From assembly GCA_041658205.1 (NCBI GenBank), contig JBBAAO010000002.1, forward strand, positions 55,310 through 119,309: DNA of 64,000 nt, given 5' to 3'. Positions 13,320 through 54,702 of this stretch are shown in pieces. Source of the stretch: Bacteroidota bacterium (GTDB lineage: Bacteria; Bacteroidota; Ignavibacteria; UBA10030; UBA8401). The position numbers and the translations under genes are program-made. Each line of letters opens with the position of its first letter. Within the stretch, counting starts at the first letter, position 1. The notes under the pieces are model-generated. The model worked only from the letters and a program-made list of their open reading frames with translations, had not been told where the DNA came from and searched no databases.

Positions 13320-13429
13320 AAAAAGAAAAATTTTTCAAAGATACGAAATTTTTTCTTGACAACGGAATGAAATGTTATATCTTATATATGTGTAACTCAG
13401 TTGCACTACTAACGATTAACGACAAAAGA

Positions 13430-13579: not shown

Positions 13580-13586
13580 GAATACG

Positions 13587-13692: not shown

Positions 13693-13706
13693 TTTTCAGG
13701 TGTCCT

Positions 13707-15473
13707 ATGACTCAACATACTTCTCCTTCTTCCCCGCAACGGCAAATGACCGGCGCAGAAATTTTTGTTCGATCGTTGATCGAAGAAAAAGTGGATATCG
13801 TATTCGGTTATCCGGGAGGAGCCGTTATAGGTATCTATGACGCTCTGCACGATATCTCAGATATTAAACATATCCTTACCCGTCACGAGCAAGGTGCTGT
13901 CCACGCTGCTGAAGGATACGCAAAAGCGAGCGGCAAACCGGGCGTTGCATTGGTAACTTCGGGACCCGGCGCCACCAATACCGTTACTGGAATTGCGGAT
14001 GCTTATATGGATTCCATTCCGATCGTTGTCTTCACAGGACAAGTTGCTCTGAAGTTGATCGGTAACGATGCATTTCAAGAGGCAGATATTGTCGGCATCA
14101 CTCGCCCAATCACCAAACACAATTATCTCGTCCGCGATGTGAATGAACTTGCTGCAACAATTAAAGAAGCATTCTATGTTGCCACCACCGGTCGTCCGGG
14201 TCCGGTTCTTGTCGATCTTCCGAAAGATGTGATGGCGACAAAAACCGTATTCAGTTATCCCAAGACAGTAAAGATGCGTTCCTATGTCCCGCATGTTGAA
14301 GGACATCAAAAACAATTGGACAAAGCAATAGCATTAATTGCGAAGGCAAAACGTCCTGTGTTATATGTAGGAGGCGGAACAATTCTTTCCAACGCCGCGG
14401 AAGAACTGACAAAGTTTGCACACAAAACAAAAATTCCGGTGACGACAACACTTCATGGTCTCGGTGCTTTTCCAGAAACGGATGAGCTCTCGCTCGGCAT
14501 GTTGGGAATGCACGGCACATGGTATTCCAACACGGCGGTGAATTATTGCGATTTGCTAATCGCAGTCGGCGCAAGGTTTGATGATCGCGTGACAGGAAAG
14601 ACCGATGCGTTCGCCCCCGAAGCGAAGAAGATTCATATCGATGTCGATCCATCAAATATCAGTAAAAATGTAAAGGTGGATGTACCGATTGTCGGTGACG
14701 TGAAAAGAGTGTTGCAACAATTGCTGCCGTCTGTTAGTCCATTGGATACAAAAGATTGGATTCAAACAATTAAAAATTGGAAAGAGGAACATCCGCTTCG
14801 ATATAAAAGCGGAAAATATATTCGGATGCAGCATGTCATCCGGAAAATTTCAGAGGCAACAAAAGGGAAGGCGATAATGGTGAGTGATGTTGGTCAGCAT
14901 CAAATGTGGATGGCCCAATTTTATCAATATATTTATCCGCGTACGCATTTAACATCCGGTGGACTCGGCACTATGGGATTTTCACTTCCGGCATCGATGG
15001 GTGCGGCGTTTGCTCGGAAAGATTTTCCAATCATCTCTATGAGCGGGGACGGGGGAATACAGATGAATATTCAAGAACTCGCAACCATCCGTGAGCATAA
15101 CGTCCCTGTGAAAATATTGATCATGAACAACGGGTATCTCGGCATGGTAAGGCAATGGCAAGAGTTGTTCTGGCGAAAACGATATTCTCACGTAGAAATG
15201 TTCGGTCCTGATTACGTAAAATTGGCCGAAGCATATGGTATTCCCGGATTTCGAGTAACCTTGACAGATGAGGTAGATAATGTTGTCAATAAAATGCTTG
15301 AAATCGATGGCCCCGTACTCGTAGAATTCAAAGTGGTAAAAGAAGAAAATGTTTATCCGATGATTCCGGCAGGGCAGACATATCATGAAATTATTGATGT
15401 ACCGGATAATACAGCAACAATTGAAGATGAACAAGAACGTGATCTTGAAATGATCACTATTACCAAAGGATAA
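13707..15473 (+). CDS. ilvB: acetolactate synthase large (catalytic) subunit
   Basis: 588 aa; TPP-enzyme motifs 'GYPGGAVIGIYDAL' and 'TSGPGATN'. Confidence 0.95.
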   Translation: MTQHTSPSSPQRQMTGAEIFVRSLIEEKVDIVFGYPGGAVIGIYDALHDISDIKHILTRHEQGAVHAAEGYAKASGKPGVALVTSGPGATNTVTGIADAYMDSIPIVVFTGQVALKLIGNDAFQEADIVGITRPITKHNYLVRDVNELAATIKEAFYVATTGRPGPVLVDLPKDVMATKTVFSYPKTVKMRSYVPHVEGHQKQLDKAIALIAKAKRPVLYVGGGTILSNAAEELTKFAHKTKIPVTTTLHGLGAFPETDELSLGMLGMHGTWYSNTAVNYCDLLIAVGARFDDRVTGKTDAFAPEAKKIHIDVDPSNISKNVKVDVPIVGDVKRVLQQLLPSVSPLDTKDWIQTIKNWKEEHPLRYKSGKYIRMQHVIRKISEATKGKAIMVSDVGQHQMWMAQFYQYIYPRTHLTSGGLGTMGFSLPASMGAAFARKDFPIISMSGDGGIQMNIQELATIREHNVPVKILIMNNGYLGMVRQWQELFWRKRYSHVEMFGPDYVKLAEAYGIPGFRVTLTDEVDNVVNKMLEIDGPVLVEFKVVKEENVYPMIPAGQTYHEIIDVPDNTATIEDEQERDLEMITITKG

Positions 15474-15476
15474 TGT

Positions 15477-16004
15477 ATGAGTAATACTGTTGAAGTACCA
15501 TTAGTTCAAACGTCACACAAACACACAATTTCCGTGCTGCTGGAAAATAAATTCGGCGCTCTGAATCGAGTTGCCGGAATGTTTTCTGCAAAAGGATACA
15601 ATCTTGAAAGTATTACTGTTGGTCCGACAGAAGACAGTTCTATTTCACGGATGACAATTGTTACACGCGGTGACGACGCCATTATTGAACAAATCATCAA
15701 ACAGCTCAATAAATTAATTGATACACTGAAGGTGGTTGATCTTACATACGACAGCTTTATGGAACGGGAACTCGCGTTGATTAAGATCGGAACAACGACA
15801 GATAGTCGTCCGGAGATTATGCAGATTGTCGAAATTTTCCAAGGGAAAATAATTGATATTAGTCATAAAACATTAACCGTTGAAGCAACAGGGAGCGGTC
15901 AAAAAGTAGATGCGATCATTAAAATGTTAAAACCATTCCATATCAAAGAGATAGCCCGTACCGGGAGAGTTGCTTTAAAAAGAGAATTTGTCGGAGAAGT
16001 ATAA
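15477..16004 (+). CDS. ilvN: acetolactate synthase small (regulatory) subunit
   Basis: 175 aa; ACT domain '[34 protein letters not shown]'; starts 3 nt after ilvB. Confidence 0.9.
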
Positions 16005-16006
16005 CT

Positions 16007-19000
16007 ATGAAAGAACCGTATCAACATCAGGATAATTTTCCGTTATACGATCCGCGCAACGAACACGATGCATGCGGTATCGGATTTATTGTGAACATCA
16101 AAGGAGAACGGTCCCACGATGTCATCAGTAAAGGAGTTGAGATTCTTATCAATTTAACGCATCGCGGTGCATGCGGCTGCGATCCTGAAACGGGGGATGG
16201 AGCAGGCATTACGATACAAATCCCTCATAAATTTTTTGTGAAAGAATGTAAGACCTTAGGAATTACTCTTCCGGAGGAAGGGGAGTATGGAGTTGGAATG
16301 GTATTCCTGCCGGTGAATCAATCTTCACGTTTGGTGTGCGAAGGGATCATGGAGCGTATTGTGCGGGAAGAAGGATTGAGTGTTCTCGGATGGCGTGATG
16401 CTCCGGTTGGCGCAGATGCAATAGGTCGTATCGCCCGCACTTCGCAGCCTTATATTGAGCAAATCTTCGTTCGCCGTGCGGAGGGAATGACAAGGGAAGA
16501 ATTCGATCGTAAATTATATGTTGTCCGTAAACGGGCGGAGGCAGAATTATATACTTCCGACATTAAAGAAAAAGATTTCTTTTACATTCCGTCGTTATCA
16601 TCCCGTGTGATTATCTATAAAGGACTATTGCTGGCGCCGCAAATCAAACAGTTCTATAGCGAGTTGTTGGATCCAGACACTGAAAGCGCACTCTGTCTTG
16701 TGCATCAACGGTTTTCCACGAACACTATGCCGAACTGGCAACTGGCACATCCGTTCCGTTTCGTGAGTCATAACGGAGAGATCAACACCATGCGTGGTAA
16801 TGTTATTTGGATGCATGCACGGCAATCGGTGTTGAAATCCGATTTGTTCGGAGATGATCTTAAAAAATTATTTCCCATTATCCAACCAGACGGAAGTGAT
16901 TCTGCAGCGTTAGATAATGCTGTTGAATTATTATATCACTCCGGCCGAAGTCTGCCGCATGTGATGGCAATGCTGATTCCCGAAGCGTGGAGCATGGATG
17001 TCACCATGTCTCCGGAGAAAAAAGCATTCTATGAATATCACGCATCGCTGATGGAACCATGGGACGGCCCGGCAGCTGTTGCTTTTACGGATGGAAAAGT
17101 AATTGGTGCAACGCTGGATCGTAACGGATTGCGACCTGCTCGATACATTGAAACACACGACGGATTATTGATTATGGCGTCCGAAGTCGGTGTTCTTCAG
17201 ATTGAACCGGAGCGGGTGAAGATGAAAGGAAGACTGGAGCCGGGAAAAATGCTGCTGGTGGATCTTGAACAGAAACGTGTGATTCTGGATGAAGAAATTA
17301 AATCGCAATTAAGCTCTCGCAAGCCGTACGGCAACTGGATTAAAGAAAATCAGATCACCATTGAACAGCTTGCCGAACCTCCGCGCGCACATATGTTGAG
17401 CGAAAAAGATATTATTCAGCGTCAGAGAATGTTCGGCTACAGCGATGAAGATGTACGGATGATTGTCACTCCGATGGCGGTGAACGGGGAAGAAGCGATC
17501 GGTTCTATGGGAACCGATACACCGCTTGCGTGTTTATCCGACAAACCGCAATCGTTATTCAACTACTTCAAACAATTGTTTGCTCAGGTGACAAATCCGC
17601 CGATCGATCCGATCCGCGAAGAATTCGTCATGTCATTAACAAGTTACATTGGAACGGAAAGAAATATTCTTGAAGAGACACCGCAGCATTGTCATACATT
17701 AAAACTGCAGCATCCGATTTTAACTAATGTAGAATTGGAAAAACTCCGCCGCGTTTCGCAGGGAGATTTTCTGACGACAACATTGCCCATGTTGTTCCGT
17801 GTGAATGGTGGAGAACAGGAATTGGAGCGGGCGCTTGAAGGATTGTGCCGCCGCGCCTCATTGGCGATTGAATCCGGTTATTCTATTATCATTCTTTCCG
17901 ATCGTGGATCCGACGAAGAGTATGCACCCATTCCGAGCTTGCTTGCAATGACAGCGGTTCACAATCACTTGGTGCGAGAAAAAACGCGAACACAGGTTGC
18001 ACTCGTTGTGGAGTCAGGCGAACCACGCGAAGTGATGCACTATTGTTTGTTGATAGGGTATGGTGCAAGCGCCGTCAATCCTTATCTCGCAATCGAAACA
18101 ATTGAAGACCTTGCCAATAAAGGACGTTTATCAAAAGACGTGACAGCAGAATATGCTGTGAAAAACTACAAAAAGGCTGTCGGAAAAGGATTATTGAAAG
18201 TCTTTTCGAAGATGGGAATTTCGACACTGCAAAGTTATCGTGGTGCACAAATTTTTGAAGTGATTGGATTAAATAAAAATTTGATAGAAAAATATTTCAA
18301 CGGAACATCTTCCCGTATTGAAGGGATTGGATTGGATGTAATTGTGGAAGAGGCAAGACGTAAACATGAGTTTGCGTTGCAATCAATCTCGCATGCGAAC
18401 ACAGAACTTGATCTTGGAGGAAATTATCACTTCAGAATCAATGGTGAACGTCATTTAATCAATCCAACAACTGTAACGAAACTGCAACAGTCAGTCCGAA
18501 AGAGAGATTTCAAAACATTCAAAGAGTTCACCGGCATTTTGAATGATCAGAATAAAGAATTTTTCACTTTGCGCGGATTGATGGAATTCAGAGAAGGAAC
18601 GCGAAGTGTCCATATTGAAGATGTTGAGCCGGCAAAACAGATTGTGAAACGTTTTGTGACAGGAGCGATGTCGTACGGATCCATTAGTAAAGAAGCGCAC
18701 GAGACGATAGCGATTGCAATGAATCGCATCGGTGGAAAATCCAATACGGGAGAGGGGGGAGAAGATGAATCGCGTTTCAGTTCCGATGCGAATGGAGATC
18801 TTCGACGCAGCGCCATTAAACAAGTTGCATCCGGAAGATTTGGCGTGACAGCGAATTATCTTGTCAATGCCGATGAGATTCAAATTAAAATTGCCCAGGG
18901 AGCGAAACCGGGCGAAGGGGGACAACTTCCCGGATTCAAAGTGGATGAAGTGATTGCAAAAACTCGCCATTCAATTGCTGGCGTCGGTCTGATATCTCCA

Positions 19001-20545
19001 CCACCGCATCACGACATCTATTCTATCGAAGATCTTGCGCAATTGATTTATGATCTGAAGAATGTGAATCCGATAGCCAGAATTTCTGTGAAGCTTGTGT
19101 CTGAAGTTGGTGTCGGAACTGTTGCTGCCGGTGTGGCAAAAGCACATGCGGATATGATCCTGATCAGCGGCGATAGCGGCGGAACAGGTGCTTCTCCGTT
19201 AACTTCTATTAAACACGCCGGTGTGCCTTGGGAACTTGGGCTTGCGGAAACACAACAAGTGTTGGTGATGAACGATCTTCGCAGCCGCGTTCGAGTGCAA
19301 ACGGATGGAAAATTGCAAACAGGCCGCGATGTTGTTATTGCTGCATTGCTTGGTGCTGAAGAATTTGGGTTTTCAACTGCGCCGTTAATTTCTATGGGAT
19401 GTATTATGATGCGCAAGTGTCATTTGAATACATGTCCCGTCGGAATTGCAACGCAGGATCCTGAATTACGAAAGAAGTTTACCGGTACACCGGAACATGT
19501 GATCAACTTCTTTTTCTTTATCGCAGATGAAGTCCGTGAAATTATGGCGAAGCTCGGCTTCCGCACGATTGATGAAATGATCGGCCGCGTGGATATGCTG
19601 CAGCAGAGAAAAGATATTGATCATTGGAAAGCGAAAGGAATTAACCTTTCATCAATCCTACATCAACCAACAGTGCCGCTGAGAATTGGACGTCGATGTT
19701 CAATTTCTCAAGATCACGGTTTGAATGAAGCGCTGGATTATCAACTTCTTGAACAGACGAAATTGGCGCTCGAAGAGAAGAAGCCGGTAGAAATTTCTCT
19801 TCCCATCAGAAATGTTCATCGCACAGTCGGTGCGTTGCTGAGTGGGCGGATTGCAAAATATTACGGAGCAGAGGGATTGCCGGAGAGCACGATCAAAATC
19901 AATTTTACAGGATCAGCGGGGCAAAGTTTCGGAGCGTTCCTTTCTAAAGGAGTGACGTTAACGTTGGAAGGTGATGCAAACGATTATGTCGGAAAAGGTC
20001 TTTCCGGCGGAAAGATTATTATCTATCCGCCAAAAAATTCCACGTTTGTTCCCGAGGACAATTCGATTGTTGGTAACGTGGTAATGTATGGCGCAACGAG
20101 CGGCGAAGCGTATTTTGCCGGAAAAGGGGGCGAGCGGTTTGCCGTAAGAAATTCCGGTGCAACCGTCGTTGTGGAATCTGTCGGAGCAAACGGATGCGAA
20201 TACATGACAAACGGAATTGTTGTTGTGCTGGGTAAAACGGGCAAAAATTTTGCAGCAGGAATGTCCGGAGGATACGCATTCATCTTGGACGAAGACGGAG
20301 AATTCAGCTCAAAAATGTGCAACAAATCAATGGTCGATCTGGATGTAATGAATGAGGAGGACGATAAACTTGTTCAGAGCCTGATTAAAAAACATGTTGA
20401 CTTCACAGGAAGCCGACGCGGTAAAAAAATTCTTGATGAGTGGAAAACCTGCCGAACAAAATTTGTAAAAGTGTTTCCGCACGATTACAAACGTGTTTTG
20501 AATAGTGCAAAACAAAAAGTTAAACAGGAGGTAGTACATGGGTAA
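16007..20545 (+). CDS. gltB: glutamate synthase large subunit
   Basis: 1512 aa; N-terminal Ntn amidotransferase '[10 protein letters not shown]'; FMN/TIM and C-terminal domains present. Confidence 0.95.
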
Positions 20546-21959
20546 ACCGACCGGTTTTATGGAATATCAACGGGAGGTTCCGCAACGTCGTCCCGTCAAC
20601 GAACGATTGGAAGATTGGCGCGATGTCTATACGGCGTTTGGAGAAGAGAAGGTAAGGACGCAAGGCGCGCGTTGTATGGATTGTGGTGTTCCATTCTGTC
20701 AATCAGGCTGTCCTGTGAATAACGTTATTCCGCATTGGAACGACTTGATCTATAAAGATCGATGGGAAGAGGCTATACGGGTTCTTCATTCAACAAATAA
20801 CTTTCCGGAATTCACCGGCAATGTTTGTCCTGCTCCGTGCGAAGCGTCGTGTGTGCTGGGGATTAACGAACCGCCGGTGACGATTAAAGTGATAGAACGA
20901 ACGGTCATCGAATATGCTTTTAGCCATGGCTGGATCAAACCTGAACCTCCTAAAAAAAGAACAGGAAAAACAGTTGCCGTTATTGGTTCCGGTCCTTCGG
21001 GATTAGCAGCCGCGCAGCAATTGAATCGCGCCGGTCATCGTGTAACGGTGTATGAAAAGAACGATCGCGTTGGCGGATTGCTCCGATATGGAATTCCCGA
21101 TTTTAAATTTGAAAAACATTTGCTCGATCGACGTATTGAACAGTTGCAGGCAGAAGGGATTGTTTTTACAACAAAGACAAATGTCGGAGTAAATATTTCT
21201 GCCGAAGAATTACGGCGTTCATACGATGCGATATTATTATGCGGTGGAGCAGAATCTCCGCGCGATCTTAAAGTGCCGGGACGTGAACTGAAAGGAATTC
21301 ATTTTGCAATGGAATTTCTTCCCCAGCAAAATCGCCGCAACGCTGGCGACAAAACAGATCCGCTCAAAGATATTCTTGCAACCGGAAAACGGGTGGTGAT
21401 TATTGGCGGGGGTGATACCGGCGCGGATTGTCTTGGAACAAGTTTGCGTCAAAAAGCAAAATCAGTCAATCAATTTGAGATTATGCCAAAACCACCTCTG
21501 GAACGCGCAGCTTCAACACCGTGGCCTCTTTGGCCTCTGCAATTAAGAACAGAAAGTTCGCATGAAGAAGGGGGAATTCGTGACTGGGCTCTTGCAACAA
21601 CAAAATTTGAAGGAGACGCAAACGGCAATGTGACAAAATTGCACGCTATCCGCGTGGGGCCGCCGCCAAATTTTGCTCCCATCACCGGGACGGAGTTTAC
21701 GTTCGATGCTGATCTCGTGCTGCTGGCGATGGGGTTTAACGGCCCCACAAAGAATGGATTGTTAGATGAACTGGGAGTTGCTCTTGATGCAAGAAGCAAT
21801 GTTTCGACCGACAAGGAATATATGAGTTCTGTTCCAGGAATTTTTTCTGCGGGAGATATGCGACGCGGTCAATCGCTCGTTGTTTGGGCAATCAGTGAAG
21901 GACGAAAAGCAGCGCGCAGCGTCGATAAATATTTGATGGGGGTATCAACATTACCATAA
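20538..21959 (+). CDS. gltD: glutamate synthase small subunit (NADPH)
   Basis: Fe-S '[14 protein letters not shown]'; FAD/NAD '[16 protein letters not shown]'; overlaps the gltB stop by 8 nt. Confidence 0.9.
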
Positions 21960-21984
21960 TTCTATTGGGGGAGGAGAAAAAACG

Positions 21985-22431
21985 ATGAAACTAAAGTTCA
22001 TTGTGTTCATACTGTTCTTCGCTCTTCAGAGTTCATTTGCACAAAAAAAACAGATGGACAAAGCGAATACAATATTTGTGCAATTGAATGGTATCAAACA
22101 ACAGACAGGACAAGTAATGTTGAGCCTGTTCAACAAAGATGAAGGATTCCCGACGCATCCCGAAAAAGCATTTCGGTGGAGCAAAGCGAAAGTAACATCT
22201 TCATCCTTGATCATTAGTTTTGACGGACTTCCGCCGGGTGCATATGCAATTGCCGTAGTGCACGATGAAAATTCAAATGATGTGATGGATAGAAATTGGC
22301 TTGGGTTTCCGGAAGAACCGTACGGAATATCAAACAATGCAACAGGCACATTTAGTCCTCCAAAATTTGAAGAGGCAAAGTTTACCGTTACCGGAAAACG
22401 CGATACGATAAAGATTGAAATGCAGCCGTAA
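21985..22431 (+). CDS. secreted DUF2141-family protein
   Basis: Signal peptide 'FILFFALQSSFAQ'; core 'GQVMLSLFNKDEGFP...AIAVVHDENSNDVMDRNWLGFPEEPYG' matches DUF2141. Confidence 0.6.
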   Translation: MKLKFIVFILFFALQSSFAQKKQMDKANTIFVQLNGIKQQTGQVMLSLFNKDEGFPTHPEKAFRWSKAKVTSSSLIISFDGLPPGAYAIAVVHDENSNDVMDRNWLGFPEEPYGISNNATGTFSPPKFEEAKFTVTGKRDTIKIEMQP

Positions 22432-22499
22432 CATTTGAATGGAAATGTGTACACAATATTTGAGAGATAACTATTCATTATTAAGAAGGAAGTACAACA

Positions 22500-23555: not shown

Positions 23556-23599
23556 GTCCGCACATGTGAACGATCTTGCGACCGTTCCGACAAAACTCA

Positions 23600-25168: not shown

Positions 25169-25178
25169 GGAAAAACAA

Positions 25179-26192: not shown

Positions 26193-26247
26193 CGACGCGG
26201 CAGGTCGGCATTAATGCCATCCTGCCAATACATATGCTGAGGAATAT

Positions 26248-27795
26248 ATGAGTGATCGAGTATACATTTTTGATACAACACTGCGCGACGGAGAGCAATC
26301 TCCCGGTGCGAGTATGAATTTTGTCGAAAAAATCAGAATGGCAAAGCAGTTGGAACAGCTACAGGTGGATGTGATTGAAGCGGGATTCCCGATTGCGAGC
26401 GAAGGGGATTTTGAATCGGTAAAAGAAATTGCCAAACAAATTCGCACCGTAACGATTGCAGGATTGTGTCGTGCAAATAATAATGATATCGATCGGGCGT
26501 GGGAAGCACTACGGCATGCAGAAAAACCGCGTATTCATACATTCATCGCTACGTCGGACATTCATCTAAAATATAAGTTGAAAAAGACACGAGATGAAGT
26601 TCTGGAAAATGCGATCAAGGCGGTGCGCAGGGCAAAATCGTACTGCGACGATGTAGAATTTTCCTGTGAAGATGCTTCGCGAACCGATATTGATTTTCTC
26701 TGCAAAGTGGTCGAAGCGACAATTGCTGAAGGTGCTACTGTTGTAAACATTCCAGATACTGTTGGATATTCAGTTCCAACAGAATATGGTACAATTATCC
26801 GTACGTTGATGGAACGGGTTCCGAATATTAATAAGGCGATTGTGAGTGTTCATTGCCACGACGATCTTGGATTAGCCGTTGCGAATTCATTGGCTGGTGT
26901 TATGAACGGCGCACGACAAATTGAATGCACGATTAATGGTATCGGGGAGCGTGCAGGAAATGCATCCTTGGAAGAGATTGCAATGGCTATCCGTACGCGC
27001 AGCGAAGCATTAAAAGTATCAACAAACATCAGCACCGAAGAGATTTATCGATCAAGCAAAATGCTAGTATCGCTGACAGGAATGCATATCCAGCGCAATA
27101 AAGCAATCGTTGGCGAAAATGCATTTGCGCACGAAGCAGGGATCCATCAGGATGGAATGCTCAAAAATCCGTTGACGTATGAGATTATGACTCCCGAAAG
27201 TGTCGGTATAAAACACAGCACGCTGGTGCTCGGAAAACATTCCGGACGCCATGCGTTGAAACAACGATACGAAGAACTTGGATACAAACTGTCTGCCGAA
27301 GAATTGGAAAAAGCGTATTCCTTGTTCAGCAAACTTGCTGATGAAAAGAAACAAGTGTTTGATGACGATCTTGTTGCGCTTCTTCAGGATGAACTTTCTT
27401 CAGTAGAAGAAACATATACGATTGAAACGCTACAAGTGACAAGTGGATTAAACATTGTTCCGACCGCAACCGTTGGTTTGAAAAAAGGAAGTCAATTCCT
27501 GCAAGATTCTTCCACAGGTGACGGACCGGTTGATGCAGCATACCGCGCCATTGAACGAATCACCAACATTAATGCAGATCTTTTGGACTATTCCATTAAG
27601 TCTGTTTCGTGGGGACAGGATGCGATAGGAGAAGTCTTTGTGAAGATAGCGATCGACGGATATGTGTTTAACGGCCGCTCGGCAAGTACCGATGTAATCA
27701 CCGGAAGCGTCAAAGCATATGTGAATGCAATTAATCATGCAATTGCGGCGCGATATCGAAAACAACAATCAACAAGCGAAAACGTTGGAGTATAA
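26248..27795 (+). CDS. leuA: 2-isopropylmalate synthase
   Basis: 515 aa; '[13 protein letters not shown]' and regulatory C-terminal domain. Confidence 0.9.
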
Positions 27796-27831
27796 TAATT
27801 TTTACTCCATTGTATTAAAAAGGATTCCTGT

Positions 27832-29130
27832 ATGGCAATGACGATCACCGAAAAAATTTTAGCAAAACATTCCGGAAGAAACTCCGTGCAGCCCGGCGAC
27901 AATGTGTGGATTGATGTCGACGTGTTGATGACGCACGATGTGTGTGGACCGGGAACCTTCGGAATTTTTAAACGAGAATTCGGACAGAATGCAAAAGTAT
28001 GGGATAAAGATAAACTCGTTGTCATACCGGATCATTACATCTTTACAAAAGATATGCATGCAAACCGCAACATCCAGATCCTGCGCGATTTTGCAAAAGA
28101 ACAAGACCTTCCGCATTATTTTGATGTTGGCACATCCCGCTATAAAGGTGTTTGCCATGTTGCCATGCCTGAAGAAGGATTTACCCGTCCCGGCGAAGTA
28201 TTGTTTGGCACGGATTCGCACACATGTACTGCCGGAGCGTTTGGTGAGTTTGCGACTGGAATTGGAAATACCGATGCAGCGTTTGTTCTCGGAACAGGAA
28301 AGCTGTGGGTAAAAGTTCCCGAAACAATGAAGTTTATCTTCGAAGGGGAAATGCCAAGATATTTAATGGCGAAAGATCTCATTCTTGCCGTCATTGGAAA
28401 AATCGGTGTGGATGGTGCAACATACCGCGCAATGGATTTCAGCGGCTCCACCGTTGATGCTATGACGATGGAAGACCGTATGACGTTGTGTAATATGGTG
28501 ATTGAAGCGGGTGGAAAGAACGGCATCTGTACGCCGGATAAAACAACTATGGATTACGTCAGCGCCCGCACAAATAAAAAGTTTGAATGTTTTTTGAATG
28601 ATACGGATGCAAAGTATCACTCTGTTCACCGATTTAATGTGAACGAAATCGAACCGACTATTGCTAAACCGCACTCTCCGGACAATAAAGCGTTCGTGAG
28701 CGAAGTCGCCGGAACAAAACTGGATCGCGCATACATCGGCAGTTGTACCGGCGGGAAGATTTCGGATTTCATTGCTGCTGCTGAGATTTTGTACGGCGAA
28801 AAAGTAAAGATCGATACATTTATCGTTCCGGCGACAACGGACGTTGCCAACCAGATTAAAACAATCAGAGTAAAAGGGAAAACGGTGATGGAGATTTTTG
28901 AAGATGCGGGATGTCGCATTGGTGACTCATCATGCGCCGCATGTTTGGGAGGACCATCCGATACATTCGGACGGTTGAACGGAGCGGAAGTTTGCATTTC
29001 GTCCACAAACAGAAATTTTCCCGGGCGAATGGGTTCCAAGAAATCGCAAGTATATCTTGCATCGCCGTACACCGTCGCGGCATCGGCAGTCAAAGGGGTT
29101 ATCACGAATCCCCGCGAATTTTTTAATTAG
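27832..29130 (+). CDS. leuC: 3-isopropylmalate dehydratase large subunit
   Basis: 432 aa aconitase-family protein; 'DSHTCTAGAFGEFATGIGNTD'. Confidence 0.9.
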   Translation: MAMTITEKILAKHSGRNSVQPGDNVWIDVDVLMTHDVCGPGTFGIFKREFGQNAKVWDKDKLVVIPDHYIFTKDMHANRNIQILRDFAKEQDLPHYFDVGTSRYKGVCHVAMPEEGFTRPGEVLFGTDSHTCTAGAFGEFATGIGNTDAAFVLGTGKLWVKVPETMKFIFEGEMPRYLMAKDLILAVIGKIGVDGATYRAMDFSGSTVDAMTMEDRMTLCNMVIEAGGKNGICTPDKTTMDYVSARTNKKFECFLNDTDAKYHSVHRFNVNEIEPTIAKPHSPDNKAFVSEVAGTKLDRAYIGSCTGGKISDFIAAAEILYGEKVKIDTFIVPATTDVANQIKTIRVKGKTVMEIFEDAGCRIGDSSCAACLGGPSDTFGRLNGAEVCISSTNRNFPGRMGSKKSQVYLASPYTVAASAVKGVITNPREFFN

Positions 29131-29133
29131 GGA

Positions 29134-29168
29134 AAGACCTTCCATGTTTTAAAAACATGGAAGGTCTT
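29134..29168. repeat. near-perfect 17-bp-arm palindrome in the leuC-leuD spacer
   Basis: aagaccttccatgtttt (29134-29150), a, aaaacatggaaggtctt (29152-29168); no T-run follows. Confidence 0.6.
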
Positions 29169-29194
29169 CAGAAACATTTAATATTAAGGCAGCT

Positions 29195-29758
29195 ATGAAA
29201 GCAATCATTAAAGGAAAAGCATTCGTTCTTGGAAATGACATCGACACCGATCAGATTATTCCGGCGGCTCACCTTGTCTATAAATTAGATGATATTGATG
29301 AAAAGAAAAATTACGGCAGATATGCATTCTCCGGAGTTCCAATTGAACAATCGGGCCTGCCGCAAGGAAACATTCCTTTCATTAAAGAAGGGGAATGGCA
29401 GAGTGATTATCGTATTGTTATCGGCGGAAAGAACTTTGGATGTGGATCGTCACGTGAACATGCACCATTCGCACTGCAAGTTGCAGGGATTGAAGCGGTG
29501 ATTGCTGAAGGATATGCCCGTATTTTTTATCGCAACGCCATTGATGGCGCATTTATTGCTCCGTTTGAATCGACGCAGCATTTGGCAAAAGAGATTAAAA
29601 CGGGAGATGAACTTGAATTGGACACAACAAAATGTTCATTAAAGAATCTCACACAAAACAAAGAATATCAACTCAGCCCGCTTGGAGATATTGAACATAT
29701 TCTTCGTGGTGGGGGAATATTTGAGTATGCGAGAAAATCCGGAATGCTGCAGAAATAA
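29195..29758 (+). CDS. leuD: 3-isopropylmalate dehydratase small subunit
   Basis: 187 aa; 'GKAFVLGNDIDTDQIIPA' LeuD signature. Confidence 0.9.
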   Translation: MKAIIKGKAFVLGNDIDTDQIIPAAHLVYKLDDIDEKKNYGRYAFSGVPIEQSGLPQGNIPFIKEGEWQSDYRIVIGGKNFGCGSSREHAPFALQVAGIEAVIAEGYARIFYRNAIDGAFIAPFESTQHLAKEIKTGDELELDTTKCSLKNLTQNKEYQLSPLGDIEHILRGGGIFEYARKSGMLQK

Positions 29759-29783
29759 ACGACGAAAGAGAATTGAGATTATC

Positions 29784-30608
29784 ATGTTAAATAAAACAAT
29801 AGCTATTATCGGTGCTGGAAATATGGGAACCGCGTTGATTCGTGGAATCCTGAACGCGAAACTGACAAGTGCGAAAAAGATTTACGCCAGCGGCACGAGA
29901 ATAGAAAAGCTGGAAAAACTTTCTGCAGAGTACGGCATTAATGTAACAACAAACAATAAAGATGCCGCCAAACATGCAGACATTGTTGTCCTTTGTATCA
30001 AAGCATCGGTGATTCGTTCTGTGCTGGAAGAGATGCACAAAGTGCTGCATAAAGGACAACTTGTTATCTCCATTGCGGCCGGTGTTACAACGGAATCCAT
30101 GGAAAAAATTATCGGAAAAAACATGCCGGTTATTCGCTGCATGCCGAACATTGCATCAACAGTAGGACTCGGATCTACGGCAATATCATTTGGTCGATAT
30201 GTTCATTCAGCGCAGCACGATGTAGCCATTAAAATTTTTGAAGCTGTCGGCGATGTCGTCGTTGTTGGTGAACAGCATCTTGATGCAGTAACAGGATTAA
30301 GCGGCAGCGGTCCTGCGTACATTTACATGGTAATCGAAGCGCTTATTGACGGTGGTGTAAAGATGGGATTACCACGCGATATTTCGACAAAACTTGCCAT
30401 TCAAACCGTTCTTGGTTCTGCAAAACTGGTGAAGGAATCAAATGTCCATCCTGCAATTTTGCGCGATCAGGTAACCACTCCAGGCGGTACAACAATCAAC
30501 GCAATTCACGAACTGGAATCGCACGGTTTGAGGTCGATGTTAATTGATGCCGTGGCAACAGCGACGAGGCGTTCAAAAGAACTCTCGGAATTAATCAACA
30601 AGCATTAA
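29784..30608 (+). CDS. proC: pyrroline-5-carboxylate reductase
   Basis: 'IAIIGAGNMGTAL' Rossmann plus ProC C-terminal dimerisation domain. The start at 29784 (MLNKT...) is preferred over the ORF-track start 29682, which overlaps leuD. Confidence 0.85.
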   Translation: MLNKTIAIIGAGNMGTALIRGILNAKLTSAKKIYASGTRIEKLEKLSAEYGINVTTNNKDAAKHADIVVLCIKASVIRSVLEEMHKVLHKGQLVISIAAGVTTESMEKIIGKNMPVIRCMPNIASTVGLGSTAISFGRYVHSAQHDVAIKIFEAVGDVVVVGEQHLDAVTGLSGSGPAYIYMVIEALIDGGVKMGLPRDISTKLAIQTVLGSAKLVKESNVHPAILRDQVTTPGGTTINAIHELESHGLRSMLIDAVATATRRSKELSELINKH

Positions 30609-30650
30609 ACTCTCCAGAAGTAATGCTCTCAACGAAGTTTTAACTCTCTT

Positions 30651-31718
30651 ATGAAGAAAACGATTACAGTAATTTCCGGTGACGGGATCGGTCAAGAAGT
30701 TGTTGCAGGTGCTCTGCAAGTGTTAGATGTTGTCGCAACAAAATTTCATCACACGTTTGAATTACAAAATGCGTTAGCCGGCGGCGCAGCGTTGGATGCT
30801 ACAGGAATTCCTCTTCCCGAAGAGACGCTGAAACTTTCCAAAGCAAGCGATGCCGTTCTGCTCGGTGCAGTCGGCGGTCCAAAATGGGATTCCAATCCTC
30901 AGCACTTAAAACCGGAACGAGCATTGCTGGGACTTCGCAAAGAACTTGGTTTGTATGCAAATATTCGCCCCGCAAAAATTTATTCTGCCCTTGTCGATGC
31001 ATCGTCATTGAAGAAAGAGATTGTAAACGGTGTTGATATTATTGTTGTTCGTGAATTGACCGGCGGATTATATTTCGGTAAGCCAAGCGGATTTGAAACA
31101 AGAAACGGCGAAGAGGTCGGATTTAATACAATGATCTACTCGGAGTCGGAAGTGCAACGAATTGCCGTGTCGGCTTTTGAGATTGCACGAAAACGGAAAA
31201 AGAAATTATGTTCCGTAGACAAAGCTAATGTATTGGAAACGTCGCAATTATGGCGAAGAGTTATTTTGAACGTTGCAAAACAATATCCCGACGTTGAACT
31301 CTCTCATATGTATGTGGACAATTGTTCAATGCAGTTAATCCGTAACCCCAAACAGTTTGATGTTATTGTTACGGAGAATCTCTTCGGCGATATTCTCAGC
31401 GATGAAGCGGCTATGTTAACCGGTTCTATCGGAATGCTTGCTTCAGCCAGTCTTGGCGGAACTGTTGCAATGTACGAACCGGTGCATGGCAGCGCGCCGG
31501 ATATTGCGGGACAAAATAAAGCGAATCCAATTGCGACTATCGCTTCCGTAGCGATGATGTTGAAATATTCTTTTAATCTTAACACAGAATCCGATGCAAT
31601 TGAAAATGCTATAGAGAATGTGTTGAGTAAAGGATTCCGCACGGGAGATATTTATACTGAAGGAACAACATTGCTTGGAACAAAAGAAATGGCTTCAAAA
31701 ATTATTGAATGTATGTAA
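30651..31718 (+). CDS. leuB: 3-isopropylmalate dehydrogenase
   Basis: 355 aa; '[14 protein letters not shown]' and isocitrate/isopropylmalate dehydrogenase family core. Confidence 0.95.
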
Positions 31719-31823
31719 TTTCACCCTTTCACTCGACCAATCTTGAAGACAAACAGAATTTTTTTTTACCTGAAAGAATACAAGACTTGGCCGAGATAAC
31801 ACGAAAAATCTTTACTTAATCAT

Positions 31824-33215
31824 ATGCTTACAATGAAATTTGGCGGAACATCGGTCGGCGATGTTCCCAGACTGCAGGAAGTTGTTTCAATCGTCAAACA
31901 ATTTTTGAAAGACCAGCCGGTGGTTGTTGCTTCGGCGATGGGAGGACTGACCAATGTACTGCTCGATACAGCACAAAAAGCGGTCGAACGGAAGTCCGGT
32001 GAAGTGAACAATGCCATTGCAGCAATTCGAGAAAGGCACTTACAAATTGCAAACGCCATGATTCATGATTATCCCCGGCGTGCTGCGCTGATCAAAAATC
32101 AACAGGATTCGATCAATGAACTAGCTAATTTCTATCATGGCGTGAGTCTTTTGCGTGAACTTTCGCCCCGTTCACTTGATGCGATTGCATCATTCGGAGA
32201 AATCCTATCATGTATGCAGATTGCTGCTATTTTTGAGGAAAACGGCATCAAATCCCAATTTATTGATGCGCGAACAATTATTCAAACCGACGATAATTTT
32301 GGAGAAGCTTCTGTCGATTTCTCCGTTTCGAATAAAAAAATCAACGAAACAATTTCACCACTTGTATCCAAAGGGATTGTTCCTGTTGTGACCGGATTTA
32401 TTTCGTCTACAGAGGATGGAATAACAACAACAATTGGTCGAAGTGGTTCGGATTATACCGGCTCAATTGTTGGTTCTGCCATTAACAGTAAAGAAATCTG
32501 GATCTGGACGGATGTTGACGGTGTTATGACTGCCGATCCTCGATTTGTCAAAGGGGCACAAGTGCTCTCGGAAATTTCCTACCGCGAAGCAGCGGAGATG
32601 AGTTATTTTGGTGCAAAGGTTATTCATCCAAAGACAATGGTTCCGGCAATCGAGAAAAAGATTCCGATTCGGATTAAGAATACATTTAATCCGGAACACC
32701 AAGGAACGCTTATTTCAGCAAAACCGAATCACGGAGGAACATCAGCAAAAACGGTGACATCCATCGACAATCTTGCCATTATTGCAATTGAAGGAAATGG
32801 AATGATCGGCGTGCCGGGTGTTTCTGCAAGAATTTTTTCAGCATTAGCACGCGCTCAAGTAAACGTCATGATGATATCGCAGGCGTCATCGGAACATAAT
32901 GTCTGTATTCTTGTTCCCAAAAAAGATAGTGCGAACGGTGTAAAAGTGCTGCGGGATGAATTCAGTATTGATATTGCAAAGAAAATTATTGATGCTGTTA
33001 CTGTAAAAGAGACCGTTTCCATTGTTGCGGTGGTTGGAGAAGGAATGATTGGCACGAAAGGAATTGCCGGGAGAACATTTGATGCAGTTGCAAAAGCAGA
33101 TGTGAATATCATTGCGATTGCACAAGGCTCGTCCGAATTGAATATCTCGTTCGTTGTTGATCAAAAAGATGCCAAAAAATCGGTGCAGGCTGTGCACGAT
33201 TCGTTTTATCAATAG
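31824..33215 (+). CDS. aspartate kinase (monofunctional, tandem ACT domains)
   Basis: 'MKFGGTSVGD' kinase N-terminus; two C-terminal ACT regions; alternative start at 31833. Confidence 0.9.
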   Translation: MLTMKFGGTSVGDVPRLQEVVSIVKQFLKDQPVVVASAMGGLTNVLLDTAQKAVERKSGEVNNAIAAIRERHLQIANAMIHDYPRRAALIKNQQDSINELANFYHGVSLLRELSPRSLDAIASFGEILSCMQIAAIFEENGIKSQFIDARTIIQTDDNFGEASVDFSVSNKKINETISPLVSKGIVPVVTGFISSTEDGITTTIGRSGSDYTGSIVGSAINSKEIWIWTDVDGVMTADPRFVKGAQVLSEISYREAAEMSYFGAKVIHPKTMVPAIEKKIPIRIKNTFNPEHQGTLISAKPNHGGTSAKTVTSIDNLAIIAIEGNGMIGVPGVSARIFSALARAQVNVMMISQASSEHNVCILVPKKDSANGVKVLRDEFSIDIAKKIIDAVTVKETVSIVAVVGEGMIGTKGIAGRTFDAVAKADVNIIAIAQGSSELNISFVVDQKDAKKSVQAVHDSFYQ

Positions 33216-33311
33216 ATTGTTGCTTGCCGCTATTCCGGATAGATGGTAGTGTTGTAACATCAGTAAAAAAGAATCAGAATGTATTTTCAGACCGACAATC
33301 AAAAATAATAC

Positions 33312-33548
33312 ATGCAAAAATATCAAAGCATCAGCTGTTCGTATTATGATCAACTGGAAGCATATGCGACAAAACGCACACACTGTTCCATCATCTATAG
33401 TGATGATTCAGAAAAAATTATCGATGGTGTTATTGTGGATGTCTATGCAAAAGAAGGTGCGGAATATTTAAAACTTGACAACGGAACCGTGATTCGATTG
33501 GATTATCTTCTATCGATCAACGGTATTCCTGTCAGCAATATTTGCTAA
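33312..33548 (+). CDS. rof: Rof/YaeO-like Rho-binding antiterminator family protein
   Basis: 78 aa; 'YQSISCSYYDQLEAYA...EGAEYLKLDNGTVIRLDYLLSI' aligns along its length to E. coli Rof ('YQPINCDDYDNLELAC...KNVEYLVV...ELRLDKITSF'). Confidence 0.7.
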   Translation: MQKYQSISCSYYDQLEAYATKRTHCSIIYSDDSEKIIDGVIVDVYAKEGAEYLKLDNGTVIRLDYLLSINGIPVSNIC

Positions 33549-33549
33549 T

Positions 33550-34821
33550 ATGAAATCGATCTTAAAAAGTATAACAACCGGAACCGAATATCCACTTAAC
33601 GAAGTCCGATTCACATCGGACAACGGTGAATTGCTGGATGTGATTCATGATTTTGATGCAATTCGGAAACAATATTCAATTTCCCGCGAATATTTTTCTA
33701 CTAAACGATCCACGATCAACGGTCAGCCGAGCGGCGGCGTTTGGCATTTTAAAGAATTAGTCTTACCGACAATCGCGGAATCGGAGATTGTTTCCAAACA
33801 GGAAGGAAATACACGGCTATACCGCAGCAAAAAAATCTCCTCATGGCTTGGATTGAATTCAGAAAAATTCTTTTTAAAGCATGAAGGAGAAAACCCCACC
33901 GGTTCGTTTAAAGATCGTGGAATGACTGTTGCTATAACACAAGCAAAAGCGCTGCATCAAAAAGCGGTGACGTGTGCATCCACAGGAAATACGTCAGCAT
34001 CACTGGCTGCTTATGCTTCAGAAGCGGAATTGACGGGAATTGTGCTCATTCCCAAGGGGAATGTGGCTGTTGGAAAAATTTCGCAGGCGCTTGCATACGG
34101 AACAAAAACACTTGTTGTCGATGGAGACTTTGATGATTGCATGCGGATGATCCGCGAGGCGCAGGAAAAACTTTCCGCGTATCCACTCAATTCCATCAAT
34201 CCATTCAGACTTGAAGGGCAAAAGACAATCATGTGGGAAATTTTGCTTCAACTGAACTGGCAAATTCCCGATTGGATTGTTTTTCCCGGAGGGAATCTTG
34301 GGAATACCAGCGCATTCGGAAAAGCGCTGCATGAAGCAAAAGAACTTGGTCTGATCGATAGGCTTCCCAGGTTCGCGGTGATTCAAGCAGAAGGGGCAAG
34401 TCCGTTTTACAAAGCGTATAAAAATAATTTTTCCGGATTGAAAACGGAAAAGGCAGATACTATTGCTACTGCAATTAAAATCGGTGATCCAGTAAACTAC
34501 TCCAAAGCCGTGCGTGCATTACGGTGGACAAACGGAATTGTGGAAAGCGTCACAGATGAAGAAATTCTGGAAGCAAAAGCGAATGTTGATGCTGCGGGTA
34601 TCGGCGCAGAACCGGCTTCGTGTGCAACGGTGGCAGGAATAAAAAAATTGATTGCCAGCGGCGAGATAAAAACAAGCGAAACCGTCGTCGGAATACTGAC
34701 GGGAAACATATTGAAAGATCCGCAGGTGATTGTTGATTACCATTTTAACCGAAAAACGGCTCTCGCAAATCCGCCAAACGAAATAAAAGCAGACATTAGT
34801 GATTTAAGAAAATATCTTTAA
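33550..34821 (+). CDS. thrC: threonine synthase
   Basis: 423 aa PLP enzyme; lysine motif 'GSFKDRGMT'; starts 2 nt after the rof-like stop. Confidence 0.9.
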   Translation: MKSILKSITTGTEYPLNEVRFTSDNGELLDVIHDFDAIRKQYSISREYFSTKRSTINGQPSGGVWHFKELVLPTIAESEIVSKQEGNTRLYRSKKISSWLGLNSEKFFLKHEGENPTGSFKDRGMTVAITQAKALHQKAVTCASTGNTSASLAAYASEAELTGIVLIPKGNVAVGKISQALAYGTKTLVVDGDFDDCMRMIREAQEKLSAYPLNSINPFRLEGQKTIMWEILLQLNWQIPDWIVFPGGNLGNTSAFGKALHEAKELGLIDRLPRFAVIQAEGASPFYKAYKNNFSGLKTEKADTIATAIKIGDPVNYSKAVRALRWTNGIVESVTDEEILEAKANVDAAGIGAEPASCATVAGIKKLIASGEIKTSETVVGILTGNILKDPQVIVDYHFNRKTALANPPNEIKADISDLRKYL

Positions 34822-34835
34822 TACACCGCAAAGAC
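34822..34835. repeat. left 14-bp terminal inverted repeat of the GxxExxY cassette
   Basis: tacaccgcaaagac is the exact reverse complement of 35256-35269. Confidence 0.7.
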
Positions 34836-34853
34836 ACAGAGACGCAAAGAGAA

Positions 34854-35240
34854 ATGACTGTCGAAAATCTCAATCGCATTTCGAAGACAATTCTTGATGC
34901 GTGTATTACTGTTCATCGGGAAATGGGGCCTGGTTTATTAGAATCAATTTATGAGCTATGTCTGTTGGATGAGCTTCAACAAAGAGGATTAGTAGTTGCA
35001 AGCCAAGTTTCAATTCCTTTGAGGTTTAAGGGAAAAGAGCTATCCAAAGATTTTCGTATCGATATTCTTGTTGAAAACGAAATAGTTTTAGAAATTAAAG
35101 CGGTTGACATTTTGCTGCCAGTACATGAAGCACAAATAATCTCATACTTAAAGTTAACAGATAAGAGATTAGGCTTTTTGATCAATTTTAATGTTCCGTT
35201 ATTAAAAAATGGTTTTAAACGATTCGTTCACAATTTTTAA
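34854..35240 (+). CDS. GxxExxY family protein (PD-(D/E)XK-like fold)
   Basis: 128 aa; 'GPGLLESIYE' GxxExxY motif plus conserved 'RIDILVENEIVLEIK'; visibly AT-richer than neighbours. Confidence 0.8.
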   Translation: MTVENLNRISKTILDACITVHREMGPGLLESIYELCLLDELQQRGLVVASQVSIPLRFKGKELSKDFRIDILVENEIVLEIKAVDILLPVHEAQIISYLKLTDKRLGFLINFNVPLLKNGFKRFVHNF

Positions 35241-35255
35241 TTTTAGCGCCTTGGC

Positions 35256-35269
35256 GTCTTTGCGGTGTA
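35256..35269. repeat. right 14-bp terminal inverted repeat of the GxxExxY cassette
   Basis: gtctttgcggtgta; ends 3 nt before the thrB ATG. Confidence 0.7.
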
Positions 35270-35272
35270 AAA

Positions 35273-36163
35273 ATGCAAATAAAAATTCCCTGTTCCACCT
35301 CTAATCTCGGTCCCGGATTTGATACGCTTGGTTTGGCGTTGAATCGGTTTCTCTATCTTTCCGCAGAACAATCAAACGGATTGACAATCATTGTTGAAGG
35401 AAACGGCAAGGAACATATTGCTACCGACGCGACGAATCTTGTTTATGCAGCAATGACTTCAACAGTCCAAAAAGTTGGAAGAACAATACCAGCGATACAC
35501 CTTCATATTAAAAATGAAATTCCGTCATACGGCGGACTTGGAGGGAGTGGTGCAGCGATTGCCGGCGGTGTTTTTCTTGCGAATGAATTGTTGAAAATGA
35601 AATTATCAAAAGATGATATGTTGAATATCGCTGTGGAAATTGAAGGACATCCTGATAATGTTTCCGCTGCGATATTTGGCGGATTAACAGTAAACAGTTT
35701 CGATGCGGAAAGAAAAGTTCATTGCCGGAGTATTAATATAAAAAAACCACTTTCCGTTATTACCTGCTCTCCTCATTTTCAGGTACAGACGAAAGAAGCA
35801 CGGAAGATTCTTCCACAGCAAGTTCCCCTTAAAGATGCTGTCACCAATATCGAAAATGCAGCATCCCTTGTTGCTGCAATGATGAGTGGAGATTTTGAAG
35901 CATTACGCTATGTGACTACTGATCGTCTCCATGAACAATACCGTGCCACACTTATTCCCGGATATGCCGATGTTCAGAAAGCAGCACTCGATGCCGGTGC
36001 ATTATCCTTCAACATTAGCGGCGCAGGACCAACAGTCTTTGCGTTTGCCGTTGCACACGAACAACAGATTGCCGCCGCCATGAAACAGGCGTTCGAACGG
36101 AACGGACAACAGGCAACATCAGAAGTGATATCCGTAGAAAATTCCGGTGCGACTCTTCTCTAA
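35273..36163 (+). CDS. thrB: homoserine kinase
   Basis: GHMP kinase motif 'SNLGPGFDTLGLAL'. Confidence 0.9.
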   Translation: MQIKIPCSTSNLGPGFDTLGLALNRFLYLSAEQSNGLTIIVEGNGKEHIATDATNLVYAAMTSTVQKVGRTIPAIHLHIKNEIPSYGGLGGSGAAIAGGVFLANELLKMKLSKDDMLNIAVEIEGHPDNVSAAIFGGLTVNSFDAERKVHCRSINIKKPLSVITCSPHFQVQTKEARKILPQQVPLKDAVTNIENAASLVAAMMSGDFEALRYVTTDRLHEQYRATLIPGYADVQKAALDAGALSFNISGAGPTVFAFAVAHEQQIAAAMKQAFERNGQQATSEVISVENSGATLL

Positions 36164-36560
36164 ACTGCTTATCTTTTGTATCACAGCTGTCCAAAATAAA
36201 TCGTAACTGAATACAAAATTGGCTGTAGTAACTCAAATTGGGTAAATATATTTTGATAACAAGTAGTAAACCCTCTTTGCTGTATTGTAGAGATCGTATA
36301 AAAGTGTGTGGGTGCGAAATTTAGGAGGACTGAGTGAATGGGAAAGCGATGAATGACGGGACTTTTGATGGCGCGATTCGCGCCATCAACGGGCAAGAGC
36401 GAACGGGATTCATCGCGCGCGTTAAATTTCGCAAGGAGTTCTTTTGCTTCTTTTCTTGCTCCGTCAAGAAAAGAAGAGAGTGAGGAATTTTGTTGTTTTT
36501 ATCAATGTATTTTGGACAAGTGTGATTTTGTATCATCCTTATTAACATTCTGGGAAACCC

Positions 36561-54669: not shown

Positions 54670-54702
54670 ATTTTGCTGCAATTTTTCAAAGGAGAACTGA
54701 TT

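Follow-up and report, generated by a model that had tools for sequence, protein, structure and literature searches.

A 22.5-kb co-directional array of amino acid biosynthesis genes behind a predicted branched-chain amino acid attenuator in an ignavibacterial genome

In a 64,000-nucleotide (nt) stretch of DNA from a member of the Ignavibacteria (Bacteroidota; GenBank assembly GCA_041658205.1, contig JBBAAO010000002.1, positions 55,310 to 119,309), hereafter called the window, 18 genes lie head-to-tail on the plus strand between positions 13707 and 36163 and form a 22.5-kb array, the other strand being geneless over this distance according to the open reading frame (ORF) listing and to Pfam and NCBIfam scans. 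As judged from gene order, this array is an expanded ilvBN-ilvC-cimA-leuACDB operon conserved across its clade. On balance, we favor the reading, drawn from sequence features, that it acts as a long polycistronic unit under a branched-chain amino acid (BCAA) attenuator located in front of ilvB. Of greatest interest are the way in which the operon has grown, stepwise and with co-oriented additions, and the gene of a Rof-like protein embedded in it. Related genomes were represented by eight loci (L001, L162, L163, L165/166, L167, L168, L169 and L170), retrieved by look-ups anchored on a small ORF and on ilvN; the nearest relative in the genome collection is L001, an Ignavibacteriae metagenome-assembled genome (MAG) with 70–86% amino-acid identity.

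The leader region and the genes behind it

The spacer between mnmE and ilvB spans 387 nt and holds a promoter match, a leader ORF and several hairpins, all on the plus strand. The sigma-70-like promoter (TTGACA-N16-TATCTT, 13356-13383), found by a consensus scan, is conserved, the motif TTGAC[AT]-N16-TATCTT occurring at the same site in L167, L168, L169 and L001. It is followed by a 49-codon leader ORF (MPAYNKHTENISKRSRVRVVAVPVALLPLSGIIILLGITFAILRLIIIS, 13430-13579) in which 21 of the 49 codons specify Ile, Leu or Val (nine, seven and five, respectively), arranged as a Val block and then an Ile/Leu block, with Ile or Leu at 15 of the last 24 codons. This ORF is also present in L167, in L168, where it is annotated as a 49-amino-acid (aa) gene, and in L169, as well as in a looser form in L001. 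Its Ile/Leu codons contain the 5' arm of a hairpin, 1:2 (13533-13604), and the minimum free energy fold of the leader region has a z-score of -5.1. A candidate antiterminator, 2:3, pairs positions 13587-13600 with 13651-13664 (14 nt, 93% complementary, from the repeat search) and excludes the terminator, whose 5' arm is this same segment 13651-13664. The intrinsic terminator itself, 3:4, was recovered by folding and by the terminator scan (13653-13696; stem 13653-13678, then T7-A-T5), and its T-run ends 10 nt before the ilvB ATG.

L167, L168 and L169 share all these elements, L001 has looser versions of them, and the terminator is kept in four to five loci. With five sequences aligned, pairing extends over 86% of the terminated fold and seven pairs differ on both sides, a result matched by none of 500 shuffles, and the antiterminator has 95% of its cells paired over the five loci with two compensatory pairs; since the test used only five related sequences and a structure derived from one of them, these figures lend support without being conclusive. 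Between the window and L167, the DNA of the leader has 86% identity, versus 77–83% for coding DNA and 5–78% for the internal junctions, none of which is conserved as highly as the leader, and in the 3' half of the leader ORF synonymous positions are conserved as DNA. Rfam models returned no T-box, riboswitch or known leader, either at gathering score over the whole window or at E ≤1 on 13000-37300.

From the codons of the ORF, the terminator, the antiterminator and the 1:2 hairpin, we read the leader as a ribosome-mediated BCAA attenuator, so that the original prediction of such a device directly upstream of ilvB is borne out, with conservation and compensatory changes. The 49-codon ORF might instead encode a small hydrophobic membrane peptide, the hairpin merely ending its transcript, with no attenuation and with ilvB separately controlled: the peptide exceeds the usual length of a leader, resembles a transmembrane helix and has a protein sequence conserved in L001 and in L002, a Bacteroidetes MAG. 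We consider this very improbable. Indeed, with only 10 nt between the T-run and the ATG, ilvB can be expressed only by read-through; moreover, a mutually exclusive, co-varying antiterminator is present, conservation at the DNA level extends to synonymous sites in the 3' half of the ORF, and other phyla likewise have BCAA-rich leader ORFs, with terminators, in front of ilvB.

Such BCAA-rich ORFs lie 5' of ilvB in L002 (6251-6409) and in two Deltaproteobacteria MAGs, L060 (6043-6240) and L074 (6378-6570), the latter two being followed by terminators. The leader is thus a device of known kind, and leader-peptide attenuation of ilvB appears, from these sequences, to be widespread outside the model phyla.

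Regarding the genes behind the leader, the ORF listing, Pfam and NCBIfam confirm the 18 plus-strand genes originally predicted, at the same coordinates, and the four tightest junctions quoted with them are correct (ilvB/ilvN 3 nt, ilvN/gltB 2 nt, gltB/gltD -8 nt, rof/thrC 1 nt). Acetolactate synthase is encoded by ilvB (large subunit, 13707-15473; Pfam TPP_enzyme_N/M/C) and ilvN (small, ACT subunit, 15477-16004; Pfam ALS_ss_C and ACT). Next come, all with Pfam support, the two glutamate synthase genes, of which gltB (large subunit, 16007-20545) is a clade-specific insert and gltD (small subunit, 20538-21959) overlaps it, a DUF2141 gene (21985-22431), itself a variable insert, and ilvC (ketol-acid reductoisomerase, 22500-23555). 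The interval between ilvN and ilvC, previously put at 14.5 kb, is in fact 6,495 nt (16005-22499).

After ilvC, cimA (23600-25168) has an alternative TTG start at 23576, the gene call of a second assembly of this region, L081, using the ATG. Its product scores 776 bits on TIGR00977 (cutoff 450), while that of the adjoining leuA reaches only 208 bits there and 799 bits on a 2-isopropylmalate synthase model; by these scores, cimA is a citramalate synthase gene distinct from its leuA paralogue. The gene of 3-deoxy-D-arabino-heptulosonate 7-phosphate synthase (DAHPS), with an N-terminal FXD regulatory domain, starts 10 nt past cimA (25179-26192), and leuA (2-isopropylmalate synthase, 26248-27795) and leuC (isopropylmalate isomerase large subunit, 27832-29130) follow, these three identified by Pfam and NCBIfam. 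The small isomerase subunit is encoded by leuD (29195-29758; Pfam). For proC (pyrroline-5-carboxylate reductase, 29784-30608; Pfam), the start was corrected to the ATG at 29784, leaving a 25-nt gap to leuD; a TTG start at 29682 was dropped, as it would overlap leuD by 77 nt.

The array continues with leuB (3-isopropylmalate dehydrogenase, 30651-31718; Pfam), ask (monofunctional aspartate kinase with ACT domains, 31824-33215), the gene of the 78-aa Rof-like, Sm-fold protein (33312-33548), thrC (threonine synthase, 33550-34821), a GxxExxY/PDDEXK_3 gene (34854-35240) and thrB (homoserine kinase, 35273-36163), where ask, thrC, the GxxExxY gene and thrB rest on Pfam and NCBIfam. Fifteen of the 17 junctions measure at most 68 nt and four are overlaps or gaps of at most 3 nt, the two widest (105 and 96 nt) lying on either side of ask. 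As had been predicted, ilvD, ilvE and ilvA are absent from the window: none was found among its other ORFs, by ORF scans and by synteny with L162 and L167. The lack of ilvA would be explained by CimA, which together with LeuCD and LeuB would supply 2-oxobutyrate.

Gene order in relatives and growth of the array

In all eight loci the same backbone is found, namely ilvB-ilvN-ilvC-cimA-DAHPS-leuA-leuC-leuD-proC-leuB-ask-rof-thrC-thrB, usually with a Pyridox_ox_2 gene after it and divergent mnmE-mnmG before it, so that the comparison of gene order proposed alongside the original prediction turned out in its favor. In L001, no rof was found within 440 nt after ask. The Pyridox_ox_2 gene lies downstream of thrB, in the same orientation, in L163, L165, L166 and L170.

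Variation is confined to four junctions, and every insert is co-oriented with the backbone. Between ilvN and ilvC there is nothing in L001, DUF2141 in L169, gltBD plus DUF2141 in the window and L167, and gltBD alone in L168. The leuC/leuD junction is empty in L162 (13 nt), carries a palindrome in the window, panD in L169, L170 and L001, and panD plus a methyltransferase gene, in either order, in L163 and L165. Between leuB and ask there is either nothing, an aldo-keto reductase (AKR) gene in L162 and L163 (gaps of -4 to 18 nt) or a GNAT gene in L001, while the thrC/thrB junction is either empty or, in the window only, occupied by the GxxExxY gene. At least nine acquisitions are thus co-oriented (DAHPS, proC, gltBD, DUF2141, panD, methyltransferase, AKR, GNAT and GxxExxY), for which p is ~0.002 if orientation were free. 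In more distant genomes (a Bacteroidetes MAG, KSB1, Balneolaceae and Calditrichia), just ilvBN-ilvC-cimA-leuA-leuCD-leuB is left, and DAHPS, proC and the ask-thr block would therefore be additions of the Ignavibacteria clade. The comparative series, best exemplified at ilvN/ilvC (no insert, then DUF2141, then gltBD plus DUF2141, then gltBD alone), shows operon growth by co-oriented insertion at a few permissive junctions, and the array would have grown in this way from an ancient ilvBN-ilvC-cimA-leuA-leuCD-leuB operon.

We had considered the gltBD insert as unique to the window; this was rejected when the ilvN-anchored look-ups showed it in L167 and L168. A metagenome scan with gltD gave, among the matches listed, stand-alone gltBD pairs only (69–76% identity). 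The panD, methyltransferase and AKR genes of the relatives are not found elsewhere in the window. The description of this architecture as unusual holds for the genes of extra pathways, and literature searches found the arrangement nowhere described; it has to be tempered in that the core is common, cimA-ask(-thrC/thrB) recurs in other phyla and the layout is clade-wide.

As the source is an assembly from an uncultured organism, the array could also be a mis-assembly or a chimeric MAG contig in which unrelated operons have been fused. This is hardly credible: an independent Logan assembly (L081) contains the gltB-to-leuA segment with 100% identity, other species have the order ilvB-ilvN-gltB-gltD(-DUF2141)-ilvC-cimA-DAHPS in assemblies from JGI and NCBI (L167, L168), and the distal half occurs in four further assemblies.

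Several of the inserts have features of their own. The DUF2141 protein bears a clear N-terminal signal peptide (MKLKFIVFILFFALQSSFAQ) and would be exported; it is found inside this amino acid operon in three species, its gene in L169 overlapping ilvN by 8 nt. In L170 (5190-5843), as in L163, L165 and L169, the panD insert is preceded by a conserved hairpin (TTCCTGT...ACAGGAA) that may sequester the panD ribosome-binding site, the insert with its downstream terminator then being a regulated mini-cassette. The GxxExxY/PDDEXK_3 gene of the window is carried by a plus-strand cassette (34822-35269), not present in the relatives, whose inverted-repeat ends have a 14-nt perfect core (TACACCGCAAAGAC and GTCTTTGCGGTGTA); these ends were not found among 170 loci. 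To judge from its ends, the cassette looks like a small mobile element, and its repeats could form a long RNA stem. The 112-nt thrC/thrB spacer of L165 has similar ends and is geneless. Finally, palindromic GTCATT(C/G)..GAGC...ATGAC elements occur at differing junctions of L168 (19398-19533), L163 (9884-10000), L165 (2999-3186), L169 (16431-16623) and L001 (14260-14561), and resemble repetitive extragenic palindromic (REP) elements or miniature inverted-repeat transposable elements (MITEs).

Extent of the transcript

Three of the additions leave little choice as to their transcription. The gltB gene starts -1 or 2 nt from ilvN in L167 and L168, the DAHPS gene lies 6–19 nt past cimA in seven of the eight loci, and leuD and leuB enclose proC. 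Because the intergenic spaces are too small to hold separate promoters, we infer, with good support from this geometry, that gltBD, DAHPS and proC share the ilv/leu transcript. Moreover, each backbone junction is at most 56 nt long in at least one locus, and some genes overlap (leuB/AKR and ask/rof in L162). A search for internal promoters, suggested with the original prediction, gave no TTGAC-type match at any internal junction of the eight loci. The unit would extend near-certainly over ilvBN-gltBD, probably through leuB and possibly to thrB.

Several observations weigh against a single unit of this length. The junctions flanking ask are ~100 nt wide, the spacers of L001 are much longer, and promoters may reside within coding DNA. 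Consensus scans for promoters and terminators did not exceed the counts obtained with shuffled sequence, were therefore given no weight for or against and found no terminator at the array's own end, and the covariation that supports the attenuator comes from the small alignment described above. In addition, two strong hairpins directly follow the stop codons of DAHPS and leuC: a GC-rich one at the DAHPS/leuA junction (26199-26226, plus strand, -21 kcal/mol) and a perfect 17+17-nt palindrome at the leuC/leuD junction (29134-29168, plus strand, -23 kcal/mol, z-score -5.2), both stable enough to halt some polymerases. Lastly, at the latter junction, where relatives have panD, with or without the methyltransferase gene, L163, L165, L169 and L170 possess a canonical intrinsic terminator 3' of panD.

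Taken together with the frequent occurrence of internal promoters in long operons, these points would fit an array divided into several transcription units, for example leader-ilvBN-gltBD-DUF2141, ilvC-cimA-DAHPS, leuA-leuC, leuD-proC-leuB and ask-rof-thrC-thrB, in which promoters would lie in spacers or upstream coding DNA, the palindromes would serve as terminators and the first block alone would obey the BCAA attenuator. We regard this division as the chief alternative, possible if doubtful. Neither hairpin has a U-tract, unlike the true terminators at the convergent gene ends of the window (7768-7802 and 54687-54716), which have U-rich 3' sides, and neither is conserved in the nearest relative, the one at 26199-26226 not being conserved in L170. 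The internal junctions, in which the TTGAC-type search of the eight loci was negative, are poorly conserved between the window and the nearest relative, and in some relatives the leuB/AKR/ask/rof genes overlap or are separated by 0–18 nt and leuC/leuD by 13 nt. Furthermore, the post-panD T-run is followed within 10–24 nt by another gene in L169 and L163, and the downstream genes therefore need read-through; this suggests, on the spacing seen in these genomes, that transcription leaks through the post-panD terminators, which would set expression levels within a long operon and would not delimit it.

The palindrome at 29134 has no repeat copies in the window. Its interpretation as a decayed post-panD terminator was dropped, local alignment giving only a shared GACCTTC. 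The earlier statement that no convincing internal terminators are present stands for canonical hairpins with a U-tract, and has to be qualified by the two U-less hairpins within junctions. In the same manner, the proposal of one attenuator-gated cross-pathway transcript is upheld by geometry for gltBD, DAHPS and proC, whereas a transcript over the full 22.5 kb is at most plausible, given the wide ask junctions, the hairpins and the post-panD terminator of the relatives.

We thus keep to the long polycistronic unit, for which the following mechanism can be proposed. Transcription would start at the sigma-70-like promoter at 13356-13383. A ribosome stalling on the Ile/Leu/Val codons of the leader would leave segment 2 free to pair with segment 3, forming the antiterminator; when no stalling occurs, terminator 3:4 would form 10 nt before ilvB. 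The read-through RNA would carry ilvBN, gltBD, DUF2141, ilvC, cimA and DAHPS, most probably also leuA-leuC-leuD-proC-leuB and, less certainly, ask-rof-thrC-GxxExxY-thrB. The U-less hairpins at 26199 and 29134 would be partial stops, processing sites or stabilizers rather than full terminators and would modulate the distal genes. BCAA charging would set a coarse, shared level of transcription, and allosteric domains would trim each pathway, i.e., ACT in IlvN and Ask, LeuA_dimer in CimA and LeuA, and FXD in DAHPS. Should most of the array prove to be one transcript, a single BCAA leader would set the expression of glutamate synthase, the first aromatic step, the last proline step and the threonine branch, pathway-specific control being left to the allosteric domains; this would be an economical way of organizing global amino acid anabolism, in a lineage that has been little studied.

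The Rof-like gene, flanking features and known systems

The ORF located 1 nt 5' of thrC had been called rof. Taken alone, it scores 18.6 bits on Pfam PF07073, below the 27.6 cutoff; profile, conserved residues and predicted fold nevertheless support the name. Among 45 homologues of 78–91 aa, a profile built from 24 matches Escherichia coli Rof over its full length (E 3e-5), and 19 of these 24 match Pfam ROF at E <0.01 (best 8.7e-6). The AlphaFold2 model (predicted local distance difference test score, pLDDT, 79) consists of a helix (residues 9-21) and then five strands, and its best PDB matches are the Rof chains of Rho-Rof complexes, with template modeling (TM) scores of 0.65–0.71. In E. coli Rof, residues C10, Y13, D14 and E17 have been shown experimentally to contact Rho (PMC11018626); they align with C9, Y12, D13 and E16, which are invariant or near-invariant in the Rof-like family.

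Rof has been reported as confined to Pseudomonadota, on the basis of the Pfam model at E ≤1e-5 (PMC11018626). As profile and model indicate, the ORF encodes a real Rof-like Sm-fold protein outside this phylum, for which Rho binding and inhibition are predictions only, and it would thereby extend Rof beyond Pseudomonadota. It resembles E. coli Rof (YaeO; PDB 1SG5, 8PTM and 8W8D; PMC11018626, PMC11018607) in size, full-length profile match, fold and Rho-contact residues. It differs in context: E. coli Rof belongs to the yae locus, while the Rof-like gene is located here after ask and 1 nt ahead of thrC. This position, -11 to +1 nt from thrC, is the same in every clade member examined. The most divergent homologue, P0045 (50% identity), stands alone in an unrelated context, and the rof-thrC link is therefore clade-specific. 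No rho gene is present in the window. The fixed placement between ask and thrC offers a hypothesis for when the cell makes Rof, a question that the 2024 structural papers did not settle.

A bolder scheme, which we judge improbable, combines these elements: the whole 22.5 kb would be one attenuator-gated transcript with Ile/Leu/Val charging as master signal for glutamate, aromatic, proline and threonine synthesis, and the Rof-like protein, encoded close to its distal end, would dampen Rho when amino acid starvation induces the operon, so that Rho-dependent polarity would spare this mRNA, which would be very long and slowly translated, as well as other mRNAs. If true, the array would be a self-protecting super-operon and would provide the first physiological cue for Rof expression.

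At its borders, the array is preceded by mnmE and mnmG on the opposite strand and followed by a 19th co-directional gene, of the Pyridox_ox_2 family (36561-37211, plus strand; Pfam), 3' of thrB. The spacer between thrB and this gene holds a structured MITE-like element (36180-36526, from the repeat search) whose 41-nt inverted repeats enclose 265 nt rich in GC hairpins; the relatives have 79–303 nt there, and a 142-aa minus-strand ORF in this spacer, with no Pfam match, is probably spurious. Elsewhere in the window, a glutaminase gene (1362-2282, minus strand) lies 11 kb 5' of the glutamate synthase-carrying array, and type IX secretion system (T9SS) sorting domains are consistent with the FCB group.

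Among known systems, the closest are the ilv-leu operons, such as ilvBHC-leuABCD of Bacillus subtilis and leuABCD-ilvDBNCA of Lactococcus lactis, the latter with a leader peptide. The array shares with them the same core genes, their co-directional arrangement and one BCAA-sensing leader. In contrast to them, it has roughly double their length, carries cimA instead of ilvA, is devoid of ilvD and of a T-box, and adds gltBD, DAHPS, proC and ask/thrC/thrB, representing four pathways, as well as the DUF2141, Rof-like and GxxExxY genes. The B. subtilis ilv-leu transcript is processed into shorter stable species, and this processing is a precedent for internal hairpins that modulate expression rather than terminate transcription.

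The leader compares with the leader-peptide attenuators of enterobacteria, which control ilvGMEDA, ilvBN, leu and thr. Like them, it combines a short ORF containing regulatory codons, 1:2, 2:3 and 3:4 hairpins and a terminator just before the first gene. Unlike them, it has 49 codons, separate Val and Ile/Leu blocks and no Rfam match, and it would gate genes of other amino acid families.

As a long co-directional array of several amino acid pathways, the array recalls the aromatic supraoperon of B. subtilis (aroFBH-trpEDCFBA-hisC-tyrA-aroE), known for its nested control, TRAP regulator and documented internal promoters; the pathways are, however, different, and a leader peptide takes the place of TRAP. 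Regarding its distal part, cimA adjoins ask, sometimes with thrC/thrB, in Geobacter, Nitrospira and Acidobacteria (L016, L061 and L073, among others; cimA-ask-thrC-thrB in L031), but these clusters comprise two to four genes, whereas in the array cimA and ask are linked through the whole leu block. In the light of these comparisons, the array is an enlarged leader-peptide-controlled ilv-leu operon and not a new category.

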